Part shown: positions 5,931-56,557 of the stretch, one piece after another
Numbering within the stretch: the stretch's first letter is position 1
How the letters are laid out: every line of letters begins with the position of its first letter
Source of the DNA: Tubulanus polymorphus
Taxonomy: Eukaryota; Animalia; Nemertea
NCBI RefSeq assembly: GCF_964204645.1
Contig: NC_134026.1
Location: 15,658,150 to 15,722,149, forward strand
Direction of reading: 5' to 3'
DNA: 64,000 bases
Notes under the pieces: generated by a model
Databases searched by the model: none
What the model was told of the DNA's origin: nothing
What the model saw: the letters and a program-made list of their open reading frames with translations, nothing else
Made by a program: the position numbers and the translations under genes

Positions 5931-5933
5931 GTA

Positions 5934-10192: not shown

Positions 10193-10657
10193 TATTTTCA
10201 AAAAAACTCGGGAATAATGGATGCAACTACTACAACAGCAATATCCGTGGAGTTGAATGGAGTAATGAGAACACGTTCAAAGCTGATCAGACGGGAAAGA
10301 TAGACGGTAACCAAACTTATTTGCAACTATTTCTATATTTTAAGCACCGCATCAGCGTTAAAACTTCATCTTGTTCTATCTTATATTCAAGGTTGCATTA
10401 TGGAATCTATACCAGCTGTAGTATTCAACGGGACGTGTTTGTATAACATGACGTATAACCTAAGGAATATGTTTGGTACAAGGTCTGCAAAATTCTGTCG
10501 AGACCTCTGCAAGTTGAAATCTGAGTGCATTGCAGTTACCTGGAAAATTCATAGAAAAAGAAAGACTTGTTCGTTATATTCACAAGTATCGGACTACGTT
10601 CCACAAACTGGACCGTCCACTCTTTGGTTGCGTTCATATATAAAGTTTTGTGATTAA
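10193..10657 (+). CDS. Last two exons (10193-10306, 10392-10657) of a host PAN/Apple-domain protein gene
   Basis: AG/GT boundaries are phase-compatible. CRDLCKLKSECIAVTW..TCSLYS is a PAN-type cysteine pattern. AATAAA follows the stop. Confidence 0.6.
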
Positions 10658-21269: not shown

Positions 21270-23182
21270 TGTGAGGAGGGAGTTAAATCCTAGATGGCGC
21301 CTTTTAACGGCTATTGTGAAATCATGTACGAGTTTGTGCGAAAAATAATTAGACCCCGAGCCTCATTATCTAGGATCGCTTACGTGCGCGAGTGCGAAAA
21401 CGTGGCAGGGGTCGAGACTTATAGATTTACGATCTTACGAGTGTTGCGAACGAAGAAAAGAACTGTACCCCACTAAGAACGGTATTTCGCTCGATCTTTA
21501 AGAGTGGGTATATAGGGTGAATAGCTATAGGGGTTATATGTGTATATGTAATTCAATTCCATATTGTATATGAGTAGATTGTGTGTGTGTGTGCGTGCGT
21601 GCGTGCAGTGCGCACGATATCGCACACTAGATGTATGCTGGCGCGCACACTGAATGCAAATGGCTCGGGTTACAAGGAGGGAGTATGTTGAAAAGAAAGA
21701 ACAGCATTTAGTAACTATATTTAATATGTAATGAATTTTAAGGGATGGTTAGTGCAGGAGGGAGTAGAGTGGAAATAGCCGGGATTGATGATACCAAATA
21801 GGGTAAGGATAGAAGCGGGTGAGGTCAGGGTATAGGAATGTGAGAATGTACCAAATAGTATATAATTCTTAGGTTTTGAAGTTAAGAGAGTTGGAGATAA
21901 AGCAGAAAGATATGTAACACTAAGAAGAAGAAAATAAAGAATTAACGTGGTCGCAAAGAAGACTTGTTTCAACTTATATTCACTCATGAAAGGAGAAAGC
22001 TGAGGACAAATAGATGAGCCGATCAACAACATTGGTGAAAGGAGTCACACACCAACTGTTCCAGAAAAAGGACCGCGAATATTCAGATACAAAAAAAATG
22101 GATCCTGTGGTAGATAATGGACAGGGTCAACCCGACCTAACCGAAGATGGAAACGAAGAGGCAGATGATTCTTACAGAAGCGTTCACATACTAAAAGGTA
22201 TGAGTGCTTTGAAACCAGAATATTTTAACGGAGAAGATGATCCAATTCGGCCGTGGATGAACGCATTTCTACAATACGTGGAAATGATGGGCTGGACTGA
22301 GATTCAACGATTAGAGTCAACGATAATCTGAGAAAAACTATCGATAACAGATATGATAATGCCGAAAAGAAATGGCTACGAACACATGAACTAAAATATG
22401 TGAAAATAGTATCAGGACAATCAGTAGATAATTTTGCGGACATGGTATGACGAAAAGCTTCAGCACTGGAACTACCACCTCATGTAACCTTAAGTATATT
22501 TTTGGATGGGTTACCAATAAAGATAAAAAAAATTGTGTGGACTCAAATACCGGAAAATTTCGAAAAAGCGGTATCATTAGTGGGTCATGCAGTTCAGATG
22601 CTGAAAATGGATAGTGCAGTGGATAAAGACGAACGTATGCTAAACGCCTTGCACTCGCCGGCAGGCGATGAACTAGAAATATTGCGTGCAAGAGTCAGCG
22701 TGATTGAACAACAACAAGCGGCTAGACGAGATCAACAACAACATCAGCAGTGGGTGCGGCAACAAAGTAATTCGCGCACGAGGCAAAACTTTAGTTCAAG
22801 ACAATGGAATTTTTTGGGACAAAAACCCCAATATTTTTGTGGTGAATGTTTAACGGTGGAAAACATATACATGTATATTGCGGACAGTTACGGTTAACAA
22901 AAGGCCCAAAATAGGCCACCAGCAAGGATAGGATTGGGCGGCTCTAGAGCTACAAGGACGATTAAAATGATTTAAAGGTAAAAGAAAGCAAAAATGCACC
23001 CAAAAGAAGCTCAGAAATAAAAAATGGCAGGCTAAATTGAAATCTAATAAGCAGGTAACAGTGTTGAAAAGTGAGCATCCTTTAGGTTTACTATGTAAAA
23101 TAAGGGGACATGAGGTCTATACATTAGTAGATACGGGAGCAACAAATAGTGTAATTTCATTTGATTTTTTTGAACATTTTGA
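21270..23182 (+). mobile_element. Decayed Gypsy-type LTR retrotransposon (LTR, gag, start of protease), truncated at the (ACG)n tract
   Basis: Candidate LTR TGT..ACA at 21270-22031 followed by TGG. Gag-like KPEYFNGEDD..WMNAF and FLDGLPIKIK. Protease TLVDTGATNSVIS. Confidence 0.7.
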
Positions 23183-23333
<151 letters not shown>

Positions 23334-26300
23334 ACTCGACCCCGAACACGTCAATCTGGTCACCTCCCGGACTCAATTTTTGGGCCTCCGGCCTGCCACT
23401 CAGTCCAGCTGAGGGGATCCCGTATGTCCCGCCTCAGAGACCTGAGGTTCCGGGTAAGTAATTGGGTAAGTAATTGTTTCAGATCAAAGTCGAGAGGTCG
23501 AGTCCACTCGCCCTCTCAACCTCTGATATGAAACAACATATACCCTATTACTCTAATAATTTCATATAAATGAACATTATATAAATGAATATCATATACA
23601 TGAAAATCAATTATATAGATTTCAAATAAAAAATAGTTAAAATAAATGGAGAATTAAAAACTATAAAGTAATTAACGAGTTGATGAAAATATCAATTTTA
23701 ATTAAAAAGAAATTACTAAATAAATGAAAGAACAGATACTACATTTCAAAGATATTTGATTTCCATGAATTAGAAAAATATTTTACAATTAACATTTTAT
23801 TCCTATTAAAGATTGAAACTGCACGTTTTCGTTTTCAAGTGAATAATATTACTGAATTAATGTTTAAAAATCATGATCTAATGATAGAGTAATCGAATGA
23901 AAAAGATAAAATCTTATTCAATACAATAATTCCAAAATTCACAACATTTGATGAAATAGATAAACATTTAATAATTACAGATGAAATACAATAGTAATTG
24001 GAAGATGTGGGTTTCAGATCAGAGGGCGAGAGGGCGAGACACCACTCATCACCACAAGTAATTTTTTCCCCTAATAAATGGGGGAGAATGAACACCAGCC
24101 AGAAAATAATAATGTTAAAAATCAATAATAATAAAAATCAATATTATTGCACATATTGTAAAAAATACGTCGATACATCTCATAAAACACGACATGAAAA
24201 AACTGCAAATCATATAAAAATGTAATAGATTTTGAAACTCCAGAAAATTCCAATGAAAGAAAAGAAAGATTAGAAAATATGAATGTGGATGAAATAAAAT
24301 GTGAAAAATATTTAATGAATTTAAACGTCATATTGAAGAAAGATATTTTGAGGGTTCTGGCTTAACATTGAATGAAATTATATATTTACATTTAAATGTT
24401 TATAATACAGAAAGAAATAAAACATCAAAAAGTAATAAAATGTTTAAAAATGATTCAAACTTTACAACAGAAAAGGAGGATATTAAAGCATCATCTTATA
24501 TTAAATTACCATTTACAACAAAAGCAGTAATAAATGTTCAAAATGAAGATAATAAATGTTTTCTATGGTCAATTATTAGTTGCTTACATCCAACACAGGA
24601 AATGTTTGTAGAATAACAGATTATCGGAAATATGAAACATTATATGAAATTGATCAATATCCAGTAACTATAAAAATGATTCCTAAAATAGAAAAAGTTA
24701 ATAATTCAAAAATAAATGTATTCGAATTAATGCAATTACCAAAGACAAAAGGTGAAAATATTAAAGATTATACATTGGAAGCTTTATATTTAACAGAATA
24801 TTATGATGATGAAAATGCTATAGATTTGTTATATTACAAAAAAGATGAAAATGAACATTATATGTGGTTAAAACAAATTGATTTATTCGTTAGAACAGAA
24901 AGTGATCATCATCGTAAAATTTATCTATGTAGAAAATGTTTATCTAAATTTATGACTGAGAATACATTATTAAAACATAAAGAATTATGTGATAATAAAG
25001 ATTTTTGTAAATTAACAATGCCAACAGAAAAAGATTATAAATTGAAATTTACTAATCATAAATTTAAGAATATTGTTCCATTTGTAATTTATGGGGATTT
25101 TGAATCGTTGAATAAAGAATTAACTGATCAAGATAGAAAAGAAATATATAACAAAAAGCAATCATTAAAATCAATGGATAAAGGAAATGAATTAAATGAA
25201 GACACAATACAAGACCCAACAATTATAAATACAATTAAAAAAGTTCATCAAAGAGCTGCTGCTTATGGAATTTATATAAAATCAAATTATCCTGAATTAT
25301 ATGAAAGTCAATATATTTCTTTTAGAGGTGAAAATGTAGTTAATGATTTTTGTGACAAAATGATTGAATTAGAAAGTGATTTTGCAAAATTATTAAACAA
25401 AAATAAAAGAATAGTTATGACAAAAAAAGATGAAATTGATTTTAATTACGCAACTCATTGTTGTTATTGTGAAAAACGTTTTTATTCATTTGATAAAAAA
25501 GTTAGAGATCATAATCATTTAAATTCAAAATATCGTGGAGCTGCTCATGAAGATTGCAATTTTCAAGCTAAGAAAGTTAATTTCGTACCAACATTATTTC
25601 ATAATTTATCAGGCTATGATACCCATCTATTTATAAAACAATTATCGGGAAAATTGGGCGCAATTAATCAAGAAATAAAAGAATATAATGCTATGAATGG
25701 TGTAAATGTAAGAAAATATGATTTTAAACTATTAGCTAAAACATCTGAAAATTATATTTCATTTCAATTTGGTTGCATTAGATTTTTAGATTCTTATAGA
25801 TTTCTAGCAAGTTCATTAGATAATTTATCAATAAGTTTAGTTGATAATGATTTTGTTATGACTCGATATTATTATCCAAATGAACAAGATTTTAAATTAT
25901 TGAGATATAAAGGCGCAATTCCTTATTCATTTTATAAAACACACAATGATTTTAATGTAACAGAATTACTAAAAGATCAATTTTATGAGGTGGAATTAGA
26001 GGTGGAATTAGTGGTGTTATGGGAGATAGGTATTTTAAAGCAAATGATGAATATAAATTATTATATATTGACGCCAATAATTTATATGGTTGGGCAATGA
26101 TGCAACCTCAACCATATAAAAATTCTATATTAACAGAAGTTGAAAATGATGATAAAGCTAATTGGGAAAGCGCAATTATGAGTTTAGAAGATGAAGCACC
26201 AATTGGTTATTTCTTTGTAGTTGATTTAGAATATCCTGAAAATATAAAGTTTAAAACAAGAAACTTACCTTATTGCCCAGAACATTTAACTGTAGATGAT

Positions 26301-26864
26301 AGTTATTTAAGTGAATACCAGAAGAAAATAAAACCGAAAGATCATGTTTTTACAGAAAAATTAATACTTACTCAAAATAATAAATACAATTATATTGTTC
26401 ATTATAGAATGTTAAAATTTTATCTAAAACAAGGAATGAAATTAAAGAAAGTACATAGATATATTGAATTTAATCAATCGAAGTGGTTAGAAAAATATAT
26501 AGATTTCAATACTCAACAGAGAACAATATCAAAAACAGATTTTGAAAAAGATTTCTTCAAATTAATGAATAATAGTTTTTATGGTAAAACATGTGAAAAT
26601 ATTAGAAATAGAAATGATATTGAATTAGTAAATAATTCTGAAAGATTAAGACATTTACAATCAAGTCCTAGACATTTAGGAAATAAAAGATTTGAAGATT
26701 ATTTAACAGCAGTTAAATTAAAAAGAACGTCAATGAAATTTAATAAACCTATATTCATTGGTTCAACTGTTTTAGAAGTATCAAAATTATTAATGTATGA
26801 TTTTTATTATAATGTTTTACAACCACTTTTTGGGGAAAAGCATATTGAAATATTATATTTTGAT

Positions 26865-27926
26865 TCTGTAACAGCTGACACCCCAATATTATTAAAATGT
26901 AATGGTAAAATATTGATAAGAAGAATTTCAGAAATAATTCCAAAACAAAATGAATGTTATATTTCATATGGTGAAAAAGAATTAATACAAATAAATGGTT
27001 TAATGGATGTTTGGACAAGAAATGGATGGAAAAAATTAAAGAATATTATTAGACATAAATCAAATAAGAAAATCTATAGAGTTAGAACTAAATTAGGGTT
27101 TGTAGATGTTACAGAAGATCATAGTTTAATTAAACGAAATGGCGATGAAATAAAACCAACTGATATAAAAATTGGAGACGAATTATTACATAAAAGATTT
27201 TTCCAAAGAATGAATCATATGACATTCGATGAAATTATTGATAATATTTATAATATAGAACCCGAAACATTAGAAGAAAAAGAATATTTTATCAAAGGAT
27301 TTTTTATAGGAGATGGTTCAGCAGGTGTGTATAAATATGTTAATCGCACTCAATATCGTTGGTATTTATGCAATCAAGATTTGAAATTATTAGAAAGAAT
27401 AAAGAAATTCTGCGAAGTTTATTCACATAAAACATTTAGAATCATGGATCATATGAAATCATCCGCGGTTTATAGATTATTTGTAAATAATCCTAAAAAT
27501 TTTGCTACAAAATATAATGATGAATTCTATATTCATACAATAGTGAAAAGTAATACTTCAACAAAAGAAAAGATAGTTCCAGATTATGTATTAAATCCAA
27601 AAAATAATTTAAGAAAATGGTTCTTCATTGGGTTCTATGCTGCAGATGGTTCAAAAAGTTTCAAAAACCGCAAAACGATATCTTTAGCTCAAAAAGGAAA
27701 AGTTGCTATATCAGGATTGAATATATTATGCAATTCATTAGGTTTTAATATGAATATTGGATTGATTAAATCTAAACCAAATTGCTTTAATTTAAGCCAT
27801 GTAGAAAATGAGTTAACAGAAGAAGTTAAAGATTTATTTGAAATATATAACCCAACAGATTATGTTTATGATTTATCAACTGAAGATGGTACATTTAACT
27901 GTGGATTTCCATTAATAGCGGTCAAT
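26865..27926 (+). mobile_element. Intein (354 aa) with dual-motif LAGLIDADG homing endonuclease, in PolB motif C
   Basis: YFD|SVTADTPILL (block A), DVTEDHSLI (block B TxxH), FIKGFFIGDGS and FFIGFYAADGS (LAGLIDADG), VYDLSTEDGTF (block F), IAVN|TDS (Asn, then +1 Thr). Removal restores YFDTDS. Confidence 0.93.
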
Positions 27927-28776
27927 ACTGACAGTTACATACTAAAAATCAAGACAAATGACATAACAAAAGACTTAAAAACATTAAAACATCATTTTGA
28001 TTTTAGCAATTATTCCAAAGATCATGAACTATTTAGCAATGATAATAAAAAAATTCCTGGTAAGTTTAAAGATGAATTAGGGGGTGATGAAATGATTGAA
28101 TTTGTTGGGATAAGAAGTAAAATGTATAGTTACAGAACAAAAGATCATGAAGCTAAAAAGTTAAAAGGAAATATAGCTGCAAAGCAGCGATGACGGGTTT
28201 TCTGTAAAGCCATTCCGAATGATGGGAATTGTAGTAAATTGAAATATCGATACATAGAATTAAATGCATTGACAGATTCGAACCTAATATGCAACCACTG
28301 TGTAAACGTCAAATATGATTCAGCTTTGAAACCGAACATACGTGGACGTACAATCACAAATATTAATATATTTGACCAGGCACTTATTTTGGCATTCAAA
28401 CATCATGATACTGTATTATCACCATCCTTAAAAATGGATCTGTCCTATTAAGAACTCATCTTAAGCACCTGCTGAGCCGATAGATTGAGTGAATTCACAG
28501 ATAAGAACGTATTATGATTTAGAATAGATTTAAGAAGTTAATGTTTTTATTGAAATATTTGAATAAATACATATATTGTAATGTAGATTCAATCAATAAA
28601 TTATGAATTGATTTGGTCTGGGTTTCCGGCTGATGTTGATTTTGGCTCTTATGGATTACAAATTCTACAGTGATAAACAATGGATACCTGCAACATGTGT
28701 GTAAATCAAACCTATTCCACTAGTTGCGTGTGTTTCCTAATAAACGGGAGAGTCACTCTTGATCTGAGTTATTAGA

Positions 28777-30208
28777 ACTAGGAGTCCAGGGACACCATGC
28801 CCACTTGGGAAGTGGTTCCAAATGCTCAACAATCTAACAATTCAGGGGCCGGTTTCACAAAGCGTAATTAACCCTTAATTATGACTAAATCACTAATCAT
28901 GATTAAATTATCATGATTTAATCAAGTTAGGTGTTTCACAAAACGTAATTAACTTTAATTATAATTAAGTGAATTACAAAATTTAATTCTCCTCTAGAGT
29001 GTAATTAAACCTTATAATCATCATTAGTTTATTATTAAAAACAAAAAGCTGCATATATTATTCATGGAATTTGGTGTTTATTAATTGACGACGGCAATTC
29101 CTACACTTATTTAGTTCTTCAGATTGTTTGGCTCAAATAATTTGGATTTTTTGCCTTTTGTAAAAAAGGCATGTCAATACTCTAAATTCTATTGATTTTT
29201 TTCCAAACGTCCTATGTTTTTGTCAGCACGACCACCACATACTTAGAAGTATTGAATTAATTGATTTTGTCCATACATATGATAGATTTCCGTCAGTAGA
29301 GTACATATCTATGGAGTTAGTGTTAAAAAGTGCTAATCACTGCTCGAAAAAAAACCCTATTTACGAGGATTTAATTTTGCTGACTGGAGGTGAGTTTCTA
29401 TTTAAAAACTTCTGAGACATCTTGCTAAGTTTTTCCACTGGTTCCTGAGACCTTTCAGAGCAATCTTTAACTCCCAAAGGAGTGAATTTCTCTTTTCCTC
29501 TAAACAAGGAAGGTTGTTGATGCTTGGACAGCAAATGGCTGTCTAAAGTTCCGCCATTTTGATACAGTTAAATTGTAATCAAGTTGCCTAACTATGTAAT
29601 TAGTTAATTTTGTAATTAAACCCTTTTGTGAAACCGAATTTTAATCGTAATTAACTAATCATGATTAAGGAAATTTAATCATGATTTAGGTCCTAATTAT
29701 AATTAAAGTTAATTATGCTTTGTGAAACCGGCCCCAGGTATCAAAGGTATAAAACATCCCTTTTCAATGAGAAATGGCAAACTCAGAATTCGGGCCAAAA
29801 TTGACATTTTTGGGCACTAAAAAAGGTCATAGGACGGCCATCTTGAGTCTGTATCCCAATTTTTGTTATGCTGATGGGCCCAGGGGGCATTCACATATAT
29901 CCGAAAGATCAAGGTAATTGATCAAAGCATCTTCAAAATTTCCCTCAAAAAGTTCAAAAATGTGTAAAAAGTGTTGATTTTGGCGAACAACAATGGCTGC
30001 CAGTCGGCCATCTTGAATCTGACAGGGCCAGTTTTTGAGCTGAAGATGTGTCTAGGGTAGATACATGTGAAACCCAAATATCAAGACATTACATTGAAGC
30101 GTCTTCAAAACTTCCTAAAATAACTGATTTCCGTCTACGGACGGACGGACGACAGACGAAAAGTGAACGCAATAGCCCGCTGGGACTAAAGTCCCAAGTG
30201 GGCTAAAA
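28777..30208 (-). mobile_element. HINE-like element, family B, nested
   Basis: Shares ends (CCCACTTGGGACTTTAGTCCCAGCGGGCTA, (GTCC)n, ..CCCTGGAC.CCTAGTT) with 46362-47778 and 56558-59003. Confidence 0.75.
28846..29734. mobile_element. PIF/Harbinger-type MITE
   Basis: TIRs GGGCCGGTTTCACAAAGC.. / ..GCTTTGTGAAACCGGCCC, with flanking 3-bp CAG on both sides. Confidence 0.7.
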
Positions 30209-32900
30209 ATAATGTTCATTTAGTCATAGAAATCCATTGCCTTTTTGGAGTTTCTGTAATAATATTTGTTCTGCCCTAATTTTTATTACTGTATGAACCA
30301 ATGATATGCTTTGTAAATATGATGTAATAAAATAAATTTGAATTAAATTTGAACATGAGAATCAAGCATAACTTGTGTTTTTTCAACTTGTCTTACTTGT
30401 CTTTTGTTAACAGTTCCAGAGTTTCAATTACAATCAAATCCAAATTTGCTAAAAAGTACATAGGACTAAATGAAATGAACGGTTAGTTACTGCAAACCTA
30501 TTCCAGTGTTATGTCGATCGTGTTGAATCACTTTCCTTGAGTTGAAAGAATCAGATCTTCTATGGTACAATATCGGTCGAAGAGAGATATATGGTGTTGA
30601 CTGTCCTTGACCATCTAACTTCATGCATTTGACATTGGAATCAGCATCATACCCATTTGAACTGCAAAATATTCATACAACATGAAAACCTACAGGACAT
30701 GTATACAGTATTAATCAAACTTTCACCGATGTTGGATATTTGAATGAACATTAGGTTTATTTCAGTACTCTAAAGCAGGAAATAATAAGCCCAATCAATA
30801 GGCCCTATTCCCATTGGAACAATTATATAATGCGTACAGCTGTATCGTACACTTATCAGTCAAGAATGGAGAAATCGGTATACCAAACCTACGAACAGCA
30901 AAATGTACAGGCCTACAATGATTTCTGGTAATACAAGCCGTGACCACATGAACGTTTTGGTTTGACTATTAATGTCAGCAGGTCAGAGAAGGCCTGGCCA
31001 AACTTAATCACATGGCTCAAATCAATTAGCATTTCTGCGTGTGAATATTTCACTGTATTGTTTTAAAAATAGGCCTATCGAGTGAATTAGTACATAGACT
31101 GAATTAGACTTTAGGCTAGTCCTGACCAAATCCTATCCATATTATCATGGCACCAGTTATAGTAACATCACTGTAGGGCCGACGAGAGGGAAAAAGTTGT
31201 GTTTGTAGTACATAGGCATGGTAGGCTTGTCGTACTCACTTAATACTTAAAACGCTGTTGTTACCTGTACGTGACTGTACGGTGATTTCTACAGGTTAGC
31301 CATATGTGAGTACATATGGAGTACATATACATATGGAGCATGCGCGTTTGCAGATTATAGGAACTCACGTACAGCGTTTTTAGGGAACTCACGTACCGTT
31401 AACCTGTGGATATCACCGTACAGTCACTGGCACGTACGGGTAACAACTTCGTACTTAAAAAATGGTATTGGCTACTAGGAACTCACGTACGGCGTTAGTA
31501 GGGAACTCACGTACGGTTAACCTGTGGATATCACCGTACAGTCACGTACGCGTTACAATTTCGTACTTAAAATGGTATTGGCTTCTATATAATAGGCCTA
31601 TAGACAAATAAATACCGGTAGGCTTTCTTATAACCTTAGCTTCCACACTTCACAACCGAACCAACTGACCAACCAGTAGTATATTTAGTCCCAGTACGCA
31701 CCAACCGGCACAGGCCTAACACTGTTTGTCAACTGTGTGTACCGTTGTAGGCTATCGATAATCACCTGATACTTCTCTGTCGTTTGTTTTCTCTCTCTGA
31801 GACGAAGACGAACGTAATTCTAGTAGCCTTCCGCGACTCAACGACCTTGATTTAAACTTGATCAATTCAAAGTGTGTTTATTGACGCTTTTGGTTACATG
31901 AACTGATCAGCAATATACTTAAATAAAATAACCGGAATAACAAGAAATCAAAAATATTAAAGAGGTAACAAACAAATGCCCGTAAACCTGTCAGACACGC
32001 GAACGCCCGACTCGTAAACTCTTGGACTCGGACCCGCTGAGCAATAAATTCATAAAATTGACTTTGAAATTGATTGTGGAGAAGAGAGGGAATTATTCGA
32101 TAGCTCTTCCTCGAAAAGAAGAGAGAAATATCGGTAAGAAAACACAACATGGCTACTAATTGAACGGAGCCAAATTTCCGATGTTTACGGCTCGACAGTG
32201 CCTTTATAACGTGGATTTATCAAAATTCCCATGCAGTATCTGGAGATTGAAGTGAGCTGAAGGACATCATACGGATTGTATCGGCGACAGCGGTAAGGTA
32301 AGGAAACCTTTACACTTTTAACAAAAACTATGTGGAAAAGGGAAAAAAAAATAATAATAATCACGCGAATTTCAATAGGGTTTTCTGTGAAGAAACAGAA
32401 AACCCTAATAACAAAACATGTGGTTGATAAACATATAGAATTTCAAGATTATATAAAGTGTTTATATAACTCAATTGTAATGAAACATAAAATGAATTGT
32501 TTAAGATCAGAAGATCACGAGATGTACATTAATGAACTTGAAAAAACTAGTTTGAATCCATTTGATGATAAAAGGCATATTTTAGATGATGGTATAAAAA
32601 CATTACCTTATGGCCATTAAAACATAAAATCAATATCATCATACTCGAAATCACTATTGGCTTCTTCATTTTCATTTAATTGTTCTTGTATAATTTGTTT
32701 AGGTTCTTCCATTTAATTTTTCTCATTTAAATAACGTGTTATATTATTCCACATTTCATCTCGCTCTCTTTGCTTCTTTTTGTTTGTTAATTCATCAAAT
32801 GGAATTATAATATCTATGTTTAAATAATTTACAATCTTATTTAAAAAGAATTCATAATTAATTTGTTATTCTATTTTCCAAATGATACATTTATATTTGT

Positions 32901-33941
32901 TTAAATATTTTTTTTAATATTTTCCATATCTTCTTCTGTTAATTTAGGTTTTTCATAATAATCGTTAAATAATAAATATAAATACATTTTCTTTTGTTTT
33001 GTGTTAAATGTTGACGGAATAATTGTTTTTATAATATCTTTTTTAGTTATTTCACCATTTTTATTTTCTATTATTTTCATTTTTTCAAGCCATTGCATAT
33101 ATTCTGGTGTATGATCTTCTATAGAAAATATTTTAAAAATTTCATCTAGATAATTTGATTTTGGATCTATGAGAAAATTTCTAGTTTTTTCTTCACCCCA
33201 TAAATTCTTTTGCCATCCACAATCAACACAAAATAACACAGTACCTTCTTGTCTTAAGGTCGCATAACTACATGGTGGACATTTTCGTTTATAATTTATT
33301 GGTAATAGATCTTCATTAAGCTCTTGGTATTTTCTTACGTTTTCTTTATGTTTTATTGTTCTATTATGTAGATTTGAATTACTTGTTGTAATAATCAATT
33401 TACAATATTTACAATAATATGTTTTTCTTGTTAATTCATTATATTGTTTTTCTAACTTTTCAACTGTTTCTTTATTATCTGGTAACGTTTTCTCATATTT
33501 TATTTTTTCTAATAAACTATTTTTTCTTTCATTGAATTCAGTTTCAAATTTATTAGAAATTTTATCTATATGTACTTTACGAAATTGATGATTCTCCCAA
33601 TCTTCTATATTTTCAGGGCTGTATTTTATTCGACAAGGCTCGCAGAAATGATCTTTTATATTATCCTTATCATGGAATAAGAAAGGTCTTTTCCAAATAA
33701 TTTCATGTTCAACTTCAACAGAATTACTATTACTTTCATTACTATCAACATTAGCCGTTGCGCCATTAATTTTACACTTCTCTGAATGTTTTTTAACATA
33801 ATTTCTTGAGAATAATTTATTACATTTTGGGCAGTTTAGTTTAGGGGGTTTATAATTTTCTTCATGTTTTTTCATATATCGAGCAATATTACTTTTTCTT
33901 AGAAGTTCATCACAAATTTCACATGCTATCTTCTCATCCAT
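32901..33941 (-). CDS. Maverick multi-zinc-finger protein (346 aa)
   Basis: Intact ORF with CEIC..H, CPKC..HSEKC, CEPC..H..H, CKYC..H..H and CPPC..CVDC. TAAATG start. Confidence 0.7.
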   Translation of the reverse strand: MDEKIACEICDELLRKSNIARYMKKHEENYKPPKLNCPKCNKLFSRNYVKKHSEKCKINGATANVDSNESNSNSVEVEHEIIWKRPFLFHDKDNIKDHFCEPCRIKYSPENIEDWENHQFRKVHIDKISNKFETEFNERKNSLLEKIKYEKTLPDNKETVEKLEKQYNELTRKTYYCKYCKLIITTSNSNLHNRTIKHKENVRKYQELNEDLLPINYKRKCPPCSYATLRQEGTVLFCVDCGWQKNLWGEEKTRNFLIDPKSNYLDEIFKIFSIEDHTPEYMQWLEKMKIIENKNGEITKKDIIKTIIPSTFNTKQKKMYLYLLFNDYYEKPKLTEEDMENIKKNI

Positions 33942-39144: not shown

Positions 39145-40392
39145 ATGAGTGGGAGTTATATAAGACCTTCTAAGATTTCTAGAATATCTAATGCTATTAA
39201 AGCAGAAAGATCACATCATATAATTACACATAATCCTTCAAATATTAATCCCGATGAAACTTTATATGTTAGAATTCCTAGATTAACACAAAATACTTTT
39301 TATGTTCCAAATAGTACTTATTTATCAGCCGATATAAAAGTAACTGGTCATGATAATAATTATGTTGTTGATAATGTTGGGAGATATTTGATTAAAAAAT
39401 TAACTATAAAGATTGGTCCAGAAACAGTTTTCTCATTAGATGATTATAATTCATTTATGCATTATAAAGATTTATGGTTAACTAAAGAAAATAGAAATAA
39501 TATGATATTTCAGGGTATTCAATCGGAAAACCATAATAAATTAAGATCTGAAGCCAATAATGCAGTAGTAACTAATGCTGTAGATAATTTGATAAAAAAG
39601 ATTTATGGAAGCAAATATAAAATTCCTTTAGACTTTGAATTGATAAATAATAATGCACCTTTATATAAATATGTAAGTCAAGAAGATATTATATTTGAGA
39701 TAACATTTGCTCCTGTAAATGAAATTGTATTATCTAGCGTTGTTAAAGATATGGGTTATAAATTATCAAATATATGATTAGAATATGACACAGTAACTAA
39801 TGAAAATATTGCTAGCACAATTCAAACTCAATACAATCAAGGATTTTCATTATTATATGATTATATTGATAAATTTAAAACTGTAACTATTAATGCAAAT
39901 GATGAAATAATTAATGAGAATATTAACTTCCCAAGAAGATCTATTAAAGGTATATTAATATTTTTTACCATTGCAACATATTCTAATGGTGCAATTAAGG
40001 TAGATAATTATTATAATCATGAAATAACAAAAGTAGAAATAACTATCGAAGGAATAGCAAATAAAATATTTTGTCAAGGAATGAGAATGATAGATCAGTG
40101 GCCAGAAATTAGAAAACATTTTATGAATGAAAAAGTAAAATCATTTGAAAATTGTAATATTTATCAAATTGATTATTATACCGGCAATAAATATGCATTA
40201 TGGTTAGATTTTAGAACAACAGAGGATAATTCATTACATGGTTCTGGGAAAAAACTACAGAACACAAAAGATGGAATACAATTATTCATGAAAAAGAAAA
40301 AAGGAAGCTTAAATTTTAAAATGCATATTTATATTATATCTGACGCACAATTAAATATTGTAAATTCACAATTAGATAGTATTCAATATTAG
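39145..40392 (+). pseudogene. Major capsid protein (double jelly-roll, inferred); one internal TGA at 39775-39777
   Basis: ~415 codons in one frame. ITHNPSNINPDETLYVRIPRL, YKDLW..QGI, LEYDTV, ALWLDFR..DNSLHGSG resemble Maverick MCPs. Lies next to the integrase and ATPase. Confidence 0.75.
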
Positions 40393-40422
40393 AAATATAA
40401 AGTTAAAATTAACGATATATAA

Positions 40423-41547
40423 ATGGGCGGTAAAAAAAACTCCTAATACTAAAGAACAATATTTAAGAAATTTATATTACAACCCTGAGAGTTCGGTTGC
40501 TTATTCTTCTACTAAAAATATATGGCGTCAAGTAAAACAACATAAATTATATAAGATAATCCCACAAAATTTAGTTAAATATAAAGATATAAATGAATTT
40601 ATGTTAGAACAACCAACATACAAAACACATAAAAAATTTGTTAGAAAATATAAAACACGTAAAACTATGGTAAGTTATGTAGATCAACAGTGGCAAGGAG
40701 ATTTAATTCATATGAAAAATGTTAAGAAAGATAATGATGATTATTGGTGGATATTGAATATAATTGATATTTTTAGTCGTTATGTATGGAGTTTCCCACT
40801 TTATAGAAAAGATCCTGTACAAACATCAAATGTTTTAAGAAAATTTCTTTCGGATGACAAACTAAAACCAGAAAAAATACAATTTGATGATGGAAAAGAG
40901 TTTGATAATTCACTTGTTCATGAACTCTTAGATAATCATAATATTAAATATTTTTCAACAAAATCGGATAAAAAAGCAGCAGTTGTTGAACGATTTAATA
41001 GAACATTAAGAACAAGAATGTGGAAATATTTTACAGCAAATAATACTTTTAAATGGATTGATGTTTTACCAAAATTGATAGAAGGATATAATAATTCTTA
41101 TCATTCTTCTATTGGAATGAAACCTATTGATGCTAGAAAACCTGAAAATGCTGAAATTGTTTGGAATAATTTATATGGAGCATTTCTTGTAGAGGATTTT
41201 GGTGAACCTAAATTTAAAGTTGGTCAAAATGTTAGAATCTAAGTATAAAAAGATATTTGACAAAGGATACGATCGAAATTTTACTAGGGAAATATATAAA
41301 ATAAAAAAGGTAATAACAACAAAACCATATGTCTATAAATTAGAAGATTTAGATGGTGAAGACGTTGATGGCTACTTTTACGAAGAAGAATTAAGTTTAA
41401 CTTCTGAAAATCTAGAACAAGAATATAAAATTGAAAGCATTAAAAACAAAAACTATTAAAAGAAAAAAATATTCTTTAGTAAAATGGGTTGGATGGCCAG
41501 ATAAAGTTAATGAATGGATATTATCAAGTAAAATTAAAAATATATAA
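40423..41547 (+). pseudogene. Retroviral-like (rve) integrase with C-terminal chromodomain, frameshifted
   Basis: LYYNPES, WQGDL, IDIFSRY, DDGKEF, KAAVVERFNRTL, KFKVGQNVRI/SK..FDKGY, LVKWVGWPDK..EWI. Confidence 0.92.
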
Positions 41548-42156
41548 ATGAATAAGGAATTATTTATATTTGAGCCTCATAATATGTTAATTTCTGGCGT
41601 AACAAATTGTGGAAAAACTTATTTTATATTAAATTTATTAGAAACTGTTTATAAAAACTATTTTGATAATATAGTATTATTTTGTCCAACATATGAAATT
41701 AATCAAACTTATGATAGAAATATTACTAGAAATAATAAATTTATTATATTAGATCCTAAAACAGTAAAAGAAAATTTAGATAATTGTATTAAAATAGCAA
41801 TTGATATTTATAAAGGATCAAATACATTATTCATTATAGATGATTGTGCTAATCTACATGATTCAAAAGTTAGAGAGAGTGAGTTATGCTATTTAGCTTT
41901 TTCTGGCAGACATTTTGGGATAACAACTTGGGTTTTAAATCAAAAATATAATTCAATTGTTAAAGACTTTAGAGAAAACATTAGATTTCTAGTTTTATTC
42001 TACAATAAAGATAGAAAATCGATGAAAAATGCACTTGAGGAAAATGATATTATTCCACATGATTTACATAATGAATATATGGATAAGTTGAAAAATATTA
42101 AAAGATCAAAATTACTATTTAGATTACAACACCCATTTAAATATGAATTTATTTAA
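41548..42156 (+). CDS. A32/FtsK-like DNA packaging ATPase
   Basis: Walker A GVTNCGKT, Walker B LFIIDD, GRHFGIT..LNQ, FRENI. Intact ORF. Confidence 0.9.
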   Translation: MNKELFIFEPHNMLISGVTNCGKTYFILNLLETVYKNYFDNIVLFCPTYEINQTYDRNITRNNKFIILDPKTVKENLDNCIKIAIDIYKGSNTLFIIDDCANLHDSKVRESELCYLAFSGRHFGITTWVLNQKYNSIVKDFRENIRFLVLFYNKDRKSMKNALEENDIIPHDLHNEYMDKLKNIKRSKLLFRLQHPFKYEFI

Positions 42157-43357: not shown

Positions 43358-44859
43358 TATTTTAGAAAAAAAAAAAAAAAAATTGAATATCTCACTACTT
43401 TTGTCTATCTATGCGGAGCAATTAAATTGTCCAGATAAGTCATTTCGGATTCTAGATATTCATTATTTTTATTAATTTATCTTGTTTTTACTTGAATATT
43501 GTATTACAGTCGTTTCTTATTATTAGTTTTTTCTTAAATTGAAAGATGGCAGCACTGGGTGTGATGCTAAAATGAATATTTGAATTTGAATTTGTTAATC
43601 AATTAACATGGTAATTGATTACTAATTTGATTTAAAATTTTATCATAATTAAGTTAAAAATCCATAATTCATTTATCAGTTTTCATTCCTATATTCTTTT
43701 CATTCGGAATAATTCATAATTTCAAATTTCACATATTTCTTTAGTAAACACCAACAACATTTGCTTAGGGTCGCGGGGGTGTAAGTAGAAATGACGGGGG
43801 ATAAGCGTCCCGTGGCGCCTTTCAATAAGGGGATGCTTATCCCCTGAAAACTCTGTAGGTCGAGGATAGGGCAATTTTGCTAAAACTTACCTTAAAAACA
43901 CCGAAATATTCCTTTTAATCACGAGAGAGAATGTATCCTCTGTGTGTTGTATGTACTGCGTGCTTATTATATAACTGCTAGCTATCCAATATAACAACAA
44001 CGTTGAATTGCAACACCTGTTTGATCGATCAATGTTCAAATGAAGCACTCTCTTATAATAACATGTAACAGATGTTTGACTGGTACGATTGTAGTTGTTC
44101 GTAAAACGACTATGGTCATTTTTAGATATTCATTATTTTAATTTTTTATTTAATCAACAATTTCTAAATCATGATGACCGTCTTCATTTTCCCCATGATA
44201 GATTATTTTAAATCCTTCTAAATCTTTTAATTCCTCTGTACTCAATGAAACCCATTTATCAGGTAAAAACACTTTAAATTCTCGCGATGTACCAACATTA
44301 CAGTAGCTTAAATTCGCTGATACTTTCTCTCCATATTTAGTTTTTATCTTTTCTAATTTCAATATTTTATGTTCAATTTCTTTTGTAACATCAATTAACT
44401 TTTTTATTAGGGTTTTCTGTTATTTCACAGAAAACCCTATTGATATCCGCGTGATTATTATTAGGGTTTTCTGTTATTTCACAGAAAACCCTATTGATAT
44501 CCGCGTGATTATTATTATTATTATTTTCTTCCACACTATTTTTACCAAAAGAACATAGGCTTTGTTACCTTACCGCTGTTTCATATACAATCCATATAAT
44601 ATCGTTCAGCTCACTGAGATCTACAAATAGCCCGCGTGTTTTTTCACGAATCATCGTTACAAAAGCGCTGTCGGGCCGTAAAAATTTACATGTTTTTACA
44701 TGGGCGACATGTTTTTCGAGTCGTCATCCCGAAATCAACCCGCAGGCCGACTGTCACTTCGATTATCAATTCAAGTATAAATGAACTAATTTATTGCCGT
44801 AGACTTCACATTCAGTCGCGGTCTTCAAACCGTATTATTTCAACTCACGATTGCATCAT

Positions 44860-49010: not shown

Positions 49011-49097
49011 ATTATTAGCTTTTGAATAATTAGGCCAATTAATAACGTAATAAAGACTTATGCTTTCGCCTATTTTGAAGTCGATTAATCTGATATA

Positions 49098-49515: not shown

Positions 49516-52249
49516 ATATAGTGTCGAATATTAAGGTCATTTTGGCAGATCCCTTTTTTTTAAAGTGATATTAAAGCGATCATTTAAGTGATCCTACTTA
49601 ATGAAAGATCTACGGAAGCGATAAAGGGCCTCGAGTTGTTGCGTTCCAACTCGACAAGTCGCCATATTTATGTCGATATATCGCATCAATTCGACATGAA
49701 TATGTCGACATATCGTGACGTTTTGACGACTTGAAACTCAGTCCTCATCTTTCAACAACGCCAGTCACATGGAGTCGTACGTGTTCTACTTTCTGCGACG
49801 CGACACGACTGTCACAACCAACCGACGCGCTCTTGCGACTGGCAGAAACTAGTCGCACACAATCGTATTGCAAGTGACTTGCATCGAATTTTGCGATGCA
49901 ACGCGAGGATCGCATCGTGTGACAAGAACAACCTACGTCTGGCTTTAAGTTACTGCGGAGCACCAGAAATATCTTTTTTTTTCGTTCAAAAGACCTTTCG
50001 CTTGAAAATTCTTTCGTCGGAACAAAATTTATTTCGTTCGAACCAATAATATTCTATACAATTGAACCAGTTTGAAAAAATCGTTAGAACAAAGTTGAAC
50101 AAACTTTTTTCTGTCCAAACGAAAGGTTTTTCGTTCGAACAATCATTCAATTGAACAGAATCGTTTTAATTTGAACAGAATTTTCTTGTCAGAACATTAA
50201 GTTATTCGTTCGAACAAGTATATTGAAAAAAGTTTTTTCTCCGAACCGAAAGTATTAAGTATTTCGTTCAATCGAACAGAATTGTTTTCATTCAAACATT
50301 CGTTCGAAAAAAATTGTTTTCGCTCAACCAAATTCTTTTTCATTTCAACAATAACATAGCTTTTTATTCGAACACATTTTTGTCAGAATGAAGAAAATTT
50401 TTGGTTCAAGCAAAAAGCGTATTGTTTGATCAAACAGAATTATTTTCATTCGAACAAGATTTTCTTGTTGGAACATTAAGTTTTTTGGTCGAACAGCGTG
50501 TTAAGGTCGATTTGGAAATTTACTCGGTCTGGTATATGTTGGATTACTGTGTATGCCATTTGCCAGGACAATAAACAGAAGACAACTTAGGATACTACCT
50601 TGCGTGACTCCACTAGTTTGACCGACTTATTCCAAGATGAGGCGTTCCGTTGATATCAGCTACAAGTTTTCGTTCAGAGATAACTGCTGAGCCATTTGCG
50701 CGACCTATCATTGAAACTGTTTCCTAATAGCCTGTTAAGTAATGGCTGATGTTGTGCCTTATCAAATGCTTCGTCAAAATCCACCGTTGAACAGGATTCA
50801 AAGACTGTGCAGAAAACCCGTTATCGCTGCTTTGCAGCTATATTTTCAAATTGTTTTTTTGCTGGTTTTATTCTTTTGGTTTTTATTTATTGTTGCTAAG
50901 AATGCTTTTCTATCTCCCATTTATTAGGGGAAAAATTACTTGTGGTGATGAGTGGTGTCTCGCCCTCTCGCCCTCTGATCTGAAACCCACATCTTCCAAT
51001 TACTTACAATCACTTTTGAAAAATGAAAATTCACATAAATCATTATTTTTACACTTACGTTATTGCCCTTTTAGAGAATGCCATGTATTATTTTTCAGAA
51101 TACAAGAAAAAAGGTTTATCCCAGACATTCCGAATGAAATATCATTCAAAGATGTGGGAATTCAACGTAATTTAGACGATAAAATCGAAAGACCTAAATA
51201 TGAACCTAATGAAGAATCGTTATGTAATTGTGGAAAATATTATACTCGAAGCAATAAATCACATCATCTTAAATCAAAATATCATAACTCAAAAATAATA
51301 ATTCAACCCTAAATATTCAGAATAAGTTATTTCAAATTAGTTATCAATCGTTTAATTTTTTTTCTTGAATAAATGAATGAGAATGATTTCAGCATTCCAA
51401 CTGGAAAAAGTGATTTCAAAGACTATCTTGTAGCAGGAGGTTCAATATTGGCTGTACTTTTATTATGAAAATATCAGTGAGGATTTGATGAATGAAAATA
51501 TGAAATTAAGTTGGAAAAATTAAATGGAAATAATCATAAAAATAATAAAAAGAATAAAAAAGTTAATTTAGAAAATGTTTTAGAGGATTAAGACAGTATC
51601 TTTTAATTTAATTTATTTTACCCATTTTAACCATAAAAATGAGTGAAAATATATTAAATTTATTACATCTTATTTACAGAAATCAAGAGCGCATTAAGTT
51701 AATTATAATGATATCTGGAATGGTTTCATTTTCAATTTAATCATTAAAACAGTTATTGGATTTCTATGATAATTGCAAAATTAGATACGCTGAATTAAAA
51801 GATAATGTCAATAACATTTCAGATAGAATAAATAATATCAAATGCTGTGAAATTTGTAATAAAAAGTATTAAAATGATAAGAGTTTAAGAAATCACCGAT
51901 ACATTCACGAACAAAATGATAAATTATATGAATCAAATTAAGTTTTTTAATTCATTCATATATGATATTGTAATTCTTTACGCATACTAAGTCAGCTGGT
52001 TTATTGTTTTTCTTATTGATTTCTAGTCAAATGTAAAGGAATTTAGTGTTAATAAGAATTGAATAGATTCAATTAGAATTATAATAAGTTTCCTTAACAA
52101 CACTAACTTATTCAATTCTATTGTTTTTCTAATTGAATCTATTTAAAATATTATGTAATCCACTTAGCAAATAGAAACAATAGCTAGTGCTGAATAAAGA
52201 ATATGATATTCATCTGATAGATTTTATATATTACTATAAAAATAAAATA

Positions 52250-52868: not shown

Positions 52869-55800
52869 TGTTAGTCGATAAACTTTGTTTCGTCAGTAAC
52901 CGGCACTAACTGGCCTCAAATTTGAAGAACTTGGGAGCTTCTGTCCTGATTGGTCAGTATGATAAAAATGAAAAAACCTCCGATGAAACCCAGGCTCTCA
53001 CCAAGTTTGTACCGTATCTTATCGGGCCACTCATAGTTTTAGTTGTTTTACATCATTCAAGGGTTGTTATTGAATAGCATTACAATAATGAACATTTGTT
53101 CAGACAAAAGGCCCATAATCAATTTTTCGAAGATTTCATTCTCGTTAGTCAGTTATCATTAAATGTTCACACTGATCAAAATTGACTCCTTTTTTATGTG
53201 TTTTTTCTTGTTTTATTTTCAATGAAATGATTTTTTGCATACCGGTAGCCTACGTGACAGATTTTTACTTCACACCAGTTTGCCGAGCCACTGGACCATT
53301 GGTCCTTCATTTAATATTTAAGATTTAATCTTAATATTTTTATCATCATTTTTAAAATATTAAACTTTCACACATTTGAAACATACAATTTTATGCTTTC
53401 ATTTAAATATCTTATTAATTATCATTTTAGTATTTCACTTGTATATATTTGAAACATATAATTAAATAATTAAGATTCAAATATAATATTTCATGAATCA
53501 TTTTTAACATTTTAAACTTTAGTACATATGTGTCAAGACCTTTTCCTCCAGAAAGAAGTGACCAGTACGACTCGGTGTTGACATTAATGTAGTTTATTCT
53601 CAAGTGTTCCCCCTCTTGAAATAATTATCGAAATATGCAAGATTAAAAATACACATACAAGATTTAAACTACACATATTCATTTAGACAAAATGTTCAAA
53701 GTATATTATTTACGACAAATCATCGGATCGCTCCGCCGCCGCGATGGTCGTGATCCTCTCTCCTGCAGCACTCTTGGGTCGCACATTTGCTTCCTGCGCT
53801 GAATTCGTAGCTGAATATTTTGATACGGACGCAAAATCGGTTGACGCATAAACTTCGAGAGGGCATAGTTTCGGCAACGTTCTTTGTGTGACCTCTTGCA
53901 GTTTTTAATGAAACATTGCGTACTTTCCACGATGTAATTCCGTAATTACGCTAAGTCGCCATTTCGATTGTGGCCCATCATCGGGATTTTGAACGACCGA
54001 GCCCTTTTTCACTAATTCCGTATCAACGACTTCACATTTTTGATTCTCGCGTAAATGTTATAAGTACTCGCCTTTCCAGCGCCTCTTATTCACTAAGGAG
54101 CAAACAAAGATATTTCATTCTACGTGTTAACCATTCGAGAGTGACACAAAACTTCGGATCATTCAACTCATTATCTCGTACGCTAGGTTGAGGTAATCCG
54201 GTTATCCGGTGATTGAACATTAACATAGATGGGGTAAATGCTTCTAAATCTGAAAAATCTGAAGTTAGATAGGTCAACGGTCTATCATTTAAGTGAGATT
54301 CAACTTCAATCAAAAAGCTATTTAACTCATCATGGGTAAATAGAGCTCTGTCGAGTACTTATTTGGTCATATTATTCACCAACCCAATCAATCCTTCGTA
54401 AAAAACCCCTGCCAGGGGCCCTCTTGGCTATGAATTGCCATTTTACCCTGTTCACGGATAGAAAGTCCGTTACCTCAACTGATGAAAAGATTTCACCTAG
54501 AATTTTATTCGCCGATGTAAACGTTGTGGCGTTATCAAAAACGCAAGTTCTCGGCAAACCTCTACGACCTGCAAACCTACGTAGCGCTTACAAATAAAGT
54601 TAAATCCCGAACTAGCTCTAAATGCACCGCTCTACTGACAGCACATGTAAATAAACAAACGTGGCATTTAGAGGTCTCGCCACCACATCCCTTAATCACG
54701 AGTGGACCTAAATAATCAATACCAGTATGGTGAAAGACTGGAACCTCTGAAACTCTGATACCAGGTAGTGAAGGAGGGAATGGTAAGAAAAATTAACAAA
54801 CTGATGATACTTGGGAAGCGGTATCGGTCGTTTTGCCAAATAGTCTTAATCTGCGTTTTCTAACCTACCATTCGAATGATGCTCAAGCCATCATTACTAA
54901 CTGTAAATCTTTTATCAATCTGTCAACAACCAGAGCTCTAAATGACTTATCACCCGACAATCGGGCAAACACCAGAGGATATTCTGATCTTTGAATACAC
55001 AATAACCACACTTTCTCAGAATTGTTTAGATCATCAGCCGAAATACTGTCTAAGTTCCTATCAGAAACTTTGAGTCTACAATTAATTATAAAATGAAGTA
55101 CTAAGGTAGTCATTCCGAACAAGTTAGACAATGACGAGAAGCCATTTGCGTCTACTACTTCTGAAATGCCCAAAGATTCACTTTTTTCAATTGGAACAGA
55201 TTATACATGTAGATGCATTTATGTGTGTAACCGGAATTTGATTTATTCGATCTGCTATGTCAATTGTACCGGACAACCACTGTCCGCTAGAAAACAGGCA
55301 TTGTGCAGATACGCCTCTCATCAATAAATCAGCTGGATTTTTATCACCAATACAAAATTGCCAATCCCCAAAATCACAAATAGATTTTATAGCACGAGTT
55401 CTATTGGCAACAAATTCTAGTAACTTTTTATCACTTCTCGGCCAACTCAATACAATCTGACTATCCAAATAATATTTGGTTTCGATTACAGGATACGATT
55501 GTTTTAGTTCATCAAATATATTGCCCTAATTCAGCGCCTAAGGTCGCGGCTATGAGTTCTAAGCGTGGAATTGTAACCTGTTTCAATGGTGCCACTCTGC
55601 CACGACTCAATAAGAATTGAATTTCCCCCCCTTGTTTAAGGTAAGCTACAGCGCCATAAGCCGGCTGACCGGCATTGACAAAAATATGTAATTTTACAGG
55701 TAAATTGGTATCGAAACCATACCATCTTGGTACGTGCATATCTTTGATCGCATAATTCAGATCTGAAACTATTCTTTGCAACTGTAGACGAAATTGCTCT

Positions 55801-56557
55801 GGTACTGGTGTGTCCCAATCGTATGATTCTCTCCAAAATGTTTGAGTCAGTATTTTGTTCCGAATAGAAATTGGTAATAAAAGACCAAACGGATCATAAA
55901 TCTTAGCTAAATTATGAACAATTGTCCCTTTTGTAGTACCAGAGAATCCGTCTAATATAAATAATTTCTTTGAAGGCGATAATATCTTGCTCAATACTCC
56001 AATTCAATCCCAAGACGTGACTTGGATGTTCCAAAATATTCTCAGATTCTGCTAATGAACACACATAATCACTGTTTGAAGACAAGGACCTTAAATTCAT
56101 TCCTGCTAAAGAAAAAATCTCTCTCGAAGACTTAAAATAAACTAAGCTATCTTCTTGCGAATTGCATGATGTCAATATGTTATATACATAAATGTTACGT
56201 AAGATATCTCGTAACTCGTACAACAATTTTTTGTTTCGATCTGACTCCATAAGTGATGTAAGACGGTGCAATTCAAAATAAATGGAGAACAGGTTGCACC
56301 AAATAATACGCGTTTGAAACGATAAGTTTCATTTCAAGACCATTTCAGGATCTGGATTCCCTGGCTCTCTAAACCAAATGAATCTAGTTACATCGCTATC
56401 TTTGGGTCGATGCCTATTTGGAGTAAGGCTTTTTCGATGTCCGCACAAAGACCAATCACATTCAATCCAAATCTCAATGAAATACCCGTGAGATCGATCT
56501 GCAGAGCTGGACCGGGATTTAAACTATCGTTCAAACTAGGTGACCCAAAACTACAAT

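Follow-up and report, generated by a model that had tools for sequence, protein, structure and literature searches.

The window, by which we mean the whole stretch of 64,000 nucleotides analysed here, carries within the gene for the DNA polymerase (PolB) of an integrated Maverick what its motifs and predicted fold confirm to be a pol-c intein with a LAGLIDADG endonuclease. Inteins are protein parasites of microbes and giant viruses. Our preferred reading, to which we assign a probability of about 80%, is that this intein belongs to a multi-copy Maverick family of a likely animal genome, that it is predicted to splice when expressed intact, and that it likely spread by cutting empty polB genes and being copied into them.

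Motifs and predicted fold of the intein

The intein and its parts are located as follows, with the evidence for each given in brackets.

26865..27926, + strand: intein of 354 aa, pol-c allele, in which a LAGLIDADG homing endonuclease with two motifs divides the Hint splicing domain (translation, profile matches, predicted fold)
26865..27191 (right end approximate), + strand: N-terminal splicing region with Ser1 and the block B residues Thr83 and His86 (TIGR01445 at residues 2-88; invariant alignment columns)
27285..27800 (limits approximate), + strand: LAGLIDADG endonuclease with Asp150, Lys236 and Asp261 (PF14528; I-DmoI and PI-type structural matches)
27816..27926 (left end approximate), + strand: C-terminal splicing region with block F Asp336, penultimate Val353 and Asn354 (alignment columns, residue table)

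Translation of the window at 26865-27926 (+ strand) yields 354 stop-free codons running from SVTADTP to IAVN. They are in frame with the ORF at 25989-28193 and lie between the YFD and the TDS of PolB motif C, a site written here as YFD/TDS with the slash at the point of insertion. An in-frame insert of 354 codons splitting motif C in this way had been proposed in an earlier note made from the sequence alone, and translation and ORF both agree with it. The borders are confirmed independently, because 40 reads from a whole-genome run described below skip exactly 1062 nt and because P0304, an intein-less relative of 1336 aa to which the two flanks in the window show 88% and 84% identity, reads YFD/TDS.

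The same note had listed intein blocks A, B, F and G together with two LAGLIDADG helices, and residues, profiles and fold all bear this out. TEDH is located at intein residues 83-86, and GFFIGDG and GFYAADG are both present. In the profile searches for Hint and LAGLIDADG domains that the note had recommended, the 354 residues passed Pfam LAGLIDADG_3 (PF14528; 31.5 bits, cut-off 22.5) and TIGR01445, which describes the intein N-terminal region (34.8 bits, cut-off 24.5), while Pfam Intein_splicing gave an E-value of 3.5e-7, yet its 30.6 bits lie under the cut-off of 35.8. A sequence search of the PDB returned the intein endonuclease PI-PkoII as the top match (E 5e-7). Alignment A2 comprises 57 rows, the window intein and 56 homologues; Ser1, Thr83, His86, Asp336 and Asn354 are invariant in all 57 of them, and Thr occupies position +1.

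Alignment A2 also served as the input to AlphaFold2, and the resulting model of the window intein has a pLDDT of 90.6 and a pTM of 0.90. This alignment-based model is the one used here; single-sequence folding of the intein gave a pLDDT of 34. When the model was compared with the PDB by Foldseek, endonuclease-bearing inteins took ranks 1-10, headed by the TliVMA intein (7qsu, E 4e-18), PI-PkoII (9e-18), PI-PfuI and PI-SceI, with mini-inteins and I-DmoI lower down. The top fold matches in BFVD were, in order, an unnamed entry and then phycodnavirus, Pandoravirus, Marseillevirus and Megavirus PolBs.

Twelve full Maverick inteins were tabulated, and Ser1, Thr83, His86, Asp150, Asp261, Asp336 and Asn354 are kept in every one, with Lys236 kept in 11. 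The penultimate residue is Val353 in the window intein, so that the usual, though not universal, class 1 His is missing; in the other 11 it is His (8), Lys (2) or Ser (1), and Lys is the rule in the sister group described below. The features that characterize a class 1 intein are present, namely Ser1, the block B Thr and His, the block F Asp, Asn354, Thr+1, a Hint fold with an endonuclease, and a precise empty allele, and a LAGLIDADG homing endonuclease is recognizable by the two helices with their acidic Asp150 and Asp261. The assignment to the pol-c allele is based on insertion between the motif C aspartates (YFD/TDS) and on kinship with other pol-c inteins in three trees. That this is the site of archaeal and giant-virus PolB inteins, as had been claimed, is therefore supported both by position and by the nesting of the window intein among pol-c inteins. 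A Hedgehog-type Hint identity was also considered and is ruled out by the endonuclease, the insertion site and the empty alleles. No base-composition trace of recent arrival was found (GC 25.7% vs 24.2% and 26.4%).

A nuclease domain fused to the polymerase and retained in it would be another way to account for the insert, and HNH and VSR inserts of this kind exist in the Polinton PolBs of nematodes, oomycetes and molluscs, as reported in PMC10748475. The insert in the window, however, has the full set of splicing motifs and the corresponding fold, and it parts the catalytic motif between its two aspartates; we give a retained domain next to no credence.

The Maverick element and its host

The following features define the element and its surroundings; the pieces of polB are given in the next section.

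23993..24070, + strand: left terminal inverted repeat, 78 nt, with the target duplication TACAAT at 23987-23992 (repeat comparison)
39145..40392, + strand: gene resembling that of a major capsid protein, divided by a stop into two pieces (only the first matches PF16903 Capsid_N, at E 5.7e-4, which does not reach the cut-off)
40376..41242, + strand: retroviral-type integrase (PF00665, E 2.4e-10)
41548..42156, + strand: A32-type packaging ATPase (PF04665, E 3.5e-13)
50927..51004, - strand: right terminal inverted repeat, with the target duplication TACAAT at 51005-51010 (repeat comparison)
55512..56003, - strand: BEL/Pao retrotransposon remnant in the host flank (PF05380, E 1.1e-35)

The integrated Maverick extends over 23993-51004. 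Its 78-nt terminal inverted repeats (TIRs) are 99% complementary and the 6-bp TACAAT is found on both sides, which together indicate real integration into the flanking DNA. The Maverick/Polinton context assigned to the gene at the outset is upheld by the TIRs, the target duplication, the protein-primed PolB, the integrase and the ATPase. A viral maturation protease was not found among the 20 ORFs scanned, and there are no tRNA genes in 24200-64000.

Several other features of the window were recorded. The Maverick is inserted into an older AT-rich element, seen at 23470-23992 and 51005-52860; TIR-like sequence is seen near 23480-23530, in the DNA flanking the Maverick, and a second polB remnant, 53-54% identical to P0304, is located on the minus strand at about 52280-52855. 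A Ty3/gypsy retrotransposon with gag, protease, RT, RNase H and integrase occupies 718-5949 (- strand), its several ORFs being split by stops, and a (CGA)n run of 150 nt at 23183-23332 breaks up a gag/protease-like remnant at 22050-23530 (+ strand). Within the Maverick, a 346-aa zinc-finger ORF (zf-U1, E 7.5e-7) is encoded antisense to polB at 32901-33941 (- strand), and about 6 kb of low-complexity tandem and other repeats precede the right TIR (about 44000-50800). A weak PAN domain match at 10304-10657 (+ strand; E 3e-4, just under the cut-off) is possibly a host exon.

An animal host is likely because BEL/Pao, described as a metazoan subclass of retroelements (PMC3118150), sits in the flank. 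That the window is instead protist DNA or a mixed assembly, and its intein one more viral PolB intein on a microbial-eukaryote scaffold, seems to us quite improbable: while viral-type PolB inteins are known on nuclear scaffolds of algae and a labyrinthulomycete (PMC10710043), and the 24 flank ORFs scanned include no clear or single-copy host gene, the flanks do hold BEL/Pao (E 1e-35) and Ty3/gypsy elements, and the TIRs with their 6-bp target duplication mark a genuine integration into that flank. A further point against a non-animal host is the relative P0014, which is filed in a symbiont bin; the host Ctena appears in the source name of that bin. We take Ctena to be a clam, and the P0014 contig would, by that source name, be host DNA. 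Two Maverick PolBs, P0014 and P0174, are filed under bacterial names (Ca. Thiodiazotropha and Sulfurimonas), and both are likely host DNA in symbiont bins.

Decay of the window copy

The polB gene of the window is preserved in pieces on either side of the intein.

24219..26864, + strand: N-extein of the protein-primed PolB, broken by frame changes or deletions near 24305, 24605 and 25990 (tblastn with P0304)
27927..28169, + strand: first piece of the C-extein, beginning at Thr+1 of TDS (ORF, tblastn)
28169..32407, no strand assigned: repeat DNA of non-viral type, about 4.2 kb long, which interrupts polB and opens with 36 bp from the end of a very high-copy repeat (reads, tblastn)
32408..32614, + strand: C-extein, last piece of polB (84% to P0304 residues 1263-1331)

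The window copy is a decaying remnant. Neither its polB pieces nor P0304 match PF03175, a profile that the relatives P0002, P0003, P0131 and P0145 pass. The earlier note had contrasted an intact intein with a broken polB. The breaks near 24305, 24605 and 25990 and the interruption at 28169-32408 are indeed evident against P0304, but the contrast lies within chance: at the extein rate (4 breaks in 3051 nt) a stretch of 1062 nt would escape any break with a probability of about 0.25, and upstream of the intein another 290 codons are likewise open. Because the absence of a break is within chance, the stop-free intein carries no weight as evidence of selection, and the idea that it reflects selection on the window copy (p about 0.25) was dropped.

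Full, empty and recoded copies in one sample

Four runs of one coded organism contain about half of the sampled sequence words. Copies of the element were examined in the whole-genome run X5, which comes from a separate study and bears the same species label; raw reads amounting to about 12% of the run were compared with 26200-28300. The matching reads fall into identity classes of 99% and above, 95-99%, 90-95% and below 90% with 577, 6256, 4876 and 2183 reads, respectively, a spread that indicates a diverse multi-copy family. The intein is covered at a mean depth of 205 and the exteins at 413, so that about half of the copies have the intein. For an assumed genome size of 0.3 to 3 Gb, this amounts to roughly 30 to 320 copies of the intein in each haploid genome, a figure to which free viral DNA may contribute. 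The depths, together with 78 reads across empty sites, establish that intein-plus and intein-minus Maverick copies coexist in one sample, as the earlier note had anticipated.

The empty-site reads are of two kinds. In 40 of them, with 29 different starts, the site is precisely empty, the reads passing over the intein by a 1062-nt skip. The other 38 show a recoded empty site, in which the TDS codons are synonymously changed at 4 of 9 nucleotides and the serine codon class is switched; at a background divergence of 5-15%, the p-value for 4 changes in 9 is 0.0006-0.03. The recoded site represents either selected resistance or a separate subfamily, the reads not linking site to subfamily.

Variants among the copies also bear on selection. 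The split into synonymous and non-synonymous changes covers 36 of the 40 variants listed, with 423 further variants outside the listing. Among the listed intein variants that are polymorphic among copies, 8 of 10 are synonymous against an expectation of 19% (p 5e-5), while those private to the window (at least 90% of reads differ) comprise 11 non-synonymous and 2 synonymous changes, in line with neutrality; the two classes differ (Fisher p 0.003). The listed variants thus carry a signal of past purifying selection on the family, as read from differences among copies and not from the window copy.

The intein family across Maverick polymerases

The intein is not a one-off: what the earlier note had treated as one case is a widespread family. 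In three protein searches, 32 of the 268 listed cluster representatives combine an intein with a Maverick-type PolB; these are clusters at the 90% level, many are fragments, and several may share one host. The best matches among longer proteins are Maverick-type PolBs whose inteins, at the same site, are 62% (P0002), 48% (P0003), 47% (P0005), 45% (P0010) and 39-40% (P0013-P0015) identical to that of the window. RNA-primed PolBs come next in that search, at no more than about 41%, and the identity of their inteins to that of the window reaches about 42% at most.

The P0003 cluster has 136 members, on contigs of up to 1 Mb. The listing covers 15 of them, including 7 full-length copies that carry the intein and 5 empty ones, and their exteins are 94-98% identical. 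When the empty copies are compared with an intein copy, 8 of the 20 residues adjacent to the site differ in each of the five, against 9-57 of about 1100-1170 elsewhere in the extein (Fisher p 3e-11 to 6e-6). The flank of P0003 agrees at 14-17 of 19 positions with intein-bearing copies of other families, versus 11 of 19 with its own empty sisters. Since it also agrees at 14-15 of 19 with empty copies of other families, the odd flank may belong to the empty sisters. For this family, either the flanks were converted when the intein arrived or the site is altered in those empty copies that survive, and homing predicts both. In the P0010 cluster, the empty P0145 is 99% identical to three intein copies and has an unchanged site.

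In the main class of PolBs, the identity of the inteins follows that of the exteins (62/60, 50/49, 65/67 and 77/81), which points to an old association and is compatible with prolonged vertical descent accompanied by losses as much as with homing. The intein of P0005 is 41-49% identical to the others and its extein only 19-25%; this would represent a horizontal jump between PolB classes, as suggested by a single sequence from one 5.3-kb contig.

Much of this could be accommodated by purely vertical inheritance, in which a real, splicing intein is now passed on only with its Maverick and the endonuclease no longer homes. Empty copies would then reflect precise loss or subfamilies that were never invaded, and altered sites would reflect subfamily divergence. 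The parallel identities within the main PolB class fit such a history, as do the reads, which cannot tie the recoded empty site to its subfamily, and the parsimony counts given below, which do not separate gain from loss. An idle homing endonuclease is, however, expected to decay, and both LAGLIDADG aspartates are kept in all 12 inteins, which are just 41-77% identical. Vertical inheritance alone also sits poorly with differences that bunch at the insertion site in the exteins of the P0003 cluster, which are 97-98% identical, and with the presence of the same intein in a PolB class that is about 20% identical. We consider it unlikely, and retain the reading in which the intein spreads into empty polB genes.

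The same searches gave further observations on the family. The clusters of P0271, P0272 and P0173 have 41, 55 and 17 members, mostly fragments on contigs of up to 0.8 Mb, and appear to be decaying intein-bearing copies in other hosts. Across 106 parsed empty sites (proteins P0156-P0305), motif C reads YMD/TDS in 39 and YMD/CDS in 33, with several TDA and TDG forms. The unusual variability of motif C in empty Maverick PolBs may reflect escape from the endonuclease. The same intein family is found in type II topoisomerases at DQD/TDG or DAD/TDG-like sites (P0009, P0077, P0079, P0084, P0086-P0088, P0090, P0096 and P0100) and in P0029, a PF03747 protein, at the site GGD/TDT. From their site sequences, the topoisomerase and PF03747 inteins would be non-allelic jumps to D/TD look-alike sites.

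Environmental collections were scanned as well. No relative turned up in viral_contigs when P0001, P0002 and P0013 served as queries, and a scan with alignment A1 found 4 loci, the best of them from a giant-virus bin. In a set of 80 of the 426 confirmed metagenome loci and 25 genome loci, those with parsed borders have YGD-type sites, with no Maverick-type site among them, and no free Maverick genome carrying the intein was obtained from the viral_contigs, metagenome and genome loci scanned. The new 50%-cluster representatives P0348-P0488 included no protein classed as a Maverick PolB, and 2 weak matches without annotation came from the phage records.

Phylogeny and the donor of the intein

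The intein and extein trees are quick searches with SH-aLRT support only. One intein tree had 40 of its 139 rows removed as near-duplicates, and another had 23 of 61 removed, including all 5 long-branch phage-type rows. Leaving those five rows out places the 11 Maverick inteins in a single group (SH-aLRT 99). The group is nested among pol-c inteins of RNA-primed PolBs, and its sister shares a C-terminal GFPL-type motif (support 87). This sister group includes giant-virus-like PolBs (L005 by gene context) and phage-type PolBs; L001, which comes from a giant-virus bin, shares the GFPL-type motif. If the long-branch rows are kept, they group with the Maverick inteins with support of 99, and on its own the Maverick clade is weak (80) or not resolved, depending on the tree. 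The five rows (P0101, P0103, P0105, P0109 and P0116) are phage-type PolBs, matching phrog_262 in 3 of 5 scanned, whose inteins stand beside or within the Maverick inteins through a real link or an artefact. The P0005 intein groups with that of the window with support of 86, 94 and 90 in three trees.

On the extein tree of 40 rows, intein presence requires 9 changes, 7 of them forced by starred branches, and is thus patchy. The intein label is only weakly clustered on this tree (35-45 of 500 shuffles are as low), the counts being blind to gain versus loss.

Judging from these trees, the intein likely entered Mavericks once, from an RNA-primed PolB. A giant-virus (NCLDV) donor is also likely, with phage-type PolBs too among the nearest sisters. 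The earlier note had proposed that the intein moved between an NCLDV-type, RNA-primed PolB and a Maverick PolB, and had suggested separate intein and extein phylogenies as the check. The trees nest the Maverick inteins among pol-c inteins and so support the RNA-primed origin; they leave giant-virus and phage donors unseparated, and the NCLDV part of the proposal does not follow from them.

A model for the spread of the intein

In known systems, class 1 splicing restores the host motif, and the freed endonuclease cuts the empty site, into which the intein is then copied by homologous repair (PMC7765530, PMC549080). A comparable sequence of events can be proposed for the Maverick intein. The insert splits motif C, so the polymerase would work only after the insert has been removed. 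Ser1, Thr83/His86, Asp336, Asn354 and Thr+1 are predicted to perform class 1 protein splicing, and the freed LAGLIDADG protein would then cut the empty YxD/TDS site. Repair from an intein-bearing copy would convert the site and some flank, as the footprints around the site suggest; the venue could be either co-replicating extrachromosomal genomes or chromosomal copies. Empty copies with altered sites would escape cutting. Over longer times, the trees favour one old entry from an RNA-primed PolB, after which the intein was probably lost and regained and passed at least once from one PolB class to another.

A stronger version of this model holds that animal nuclear genomes, generally considered free of true inteins, carry the Maverick intein family as a natural gene drive among the endogenous viruses of one genome, one that converts empty copies, jumps between distant lineages and drove the recoding of the otherwise conserved DTDS motif (recoded TDS, TDA, CDS) as resistance. 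We regard the odds on this version as evenly balanced.

If the host is an animal, the boundary of intein hosts moves, and splicing and homing would act on animal chromosomal DNA by way of an endogenous virus. The crossing of an intein from RNA-primed to protein-primed PolBs at one shared motif would mark an encounter between a Maverick and a large DNA virus in one cell. A genome in which full, empty and recoded copies number in the tens to hundreds makes the cycle of invasion, resistance and loss of homing endonucleases testable in one individual. That the endonuclease has stayed intact across deep divergence is a further argument for expression of these Mavericks and for contact with one another's DNA.

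Comparison with known inteins and Mavericks

Eukaryotic inteins have been described from fungi, algae, a few protist groups and large viruses (Green et al., PMC5784728), and the available text of the intein surveys PMC5784728 and PMC7765530 names no animal host. In what is available of PMC12220804, inteins are mentioned in general terms only. The word intein does not occur in the available text of the vertebrate (PMC8097293), coral (PMC11131425) and protist (PMC10120064) Maverick surveys. One sentence in the available text of Krupovic et al. 2024 (PMC11161782) mentions "intein invasions" and speculates on an intein origin of the nucleases in Polinton polymerases. The literature searched, which lies outside subscription papers, Repbase, InBase and bioRxiv supplements, describes no Hint-type intein from a Maverick or from an animal genome.

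The element itself resembles the adintoviruses/Mavericks of Starrett et al. 2021 (PMC8502044) in its TIRs, 6-bp target duplication, pPolB, integrase, A32 ATPase and capsid-like gene. The window type and the P0005 type likely represent the two PolB classes of less than 30% identity described in that paper; its available text does not contain the word intein. Jeong et al. 2023 (PMC10748475) described HNH and VSR nuclease inserts in Polinton pPolB2, which, as in the window, place a nuclease in a Polinton polymerase. Unlike those inserts, that of the window comprises a Hint domain and a LAGLIDADG nuclease and lies in motif C, and intein, Hint and LAGLIDADG have no occurrence in the available text and supplement of that paper. 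The inteins in viral-type DNA polymerases of Klebsormidium, Tetrabaena and a labyrinthulomycete (Gallot-Lavallee et al. 2023, PMC10710043) likewise reach the nucleus inside an endogenous virus gene. Their hosts, in contrast to the window, are algae and a protist, and the terms animal, metazoa, Polinton and Maverick do not occur in the main text and two supplement files searched.

The Mimivirus PolB intein, at the pol-c site YGD/TDS (Ogata et al. 2005, PMC549080), is like that of the window in its site (YGD/TDS vs YFD/TDS), in having Ser first, Asn last and Thr at +1, in its LAGLIDADG endonuclease and in its length of about 350 aa. Unlike the Mimivirus case, the host protein in the window is the protein-primed PolB of an integrating Maverick, with many chromosomal copies and with empty alleles in the same sample. 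The intein described here is thus a known pol-c allele in a new setting, that of protein-primed Maverick polymerases in likely animal genomes, where full, empty and altered alleles stand side by side.
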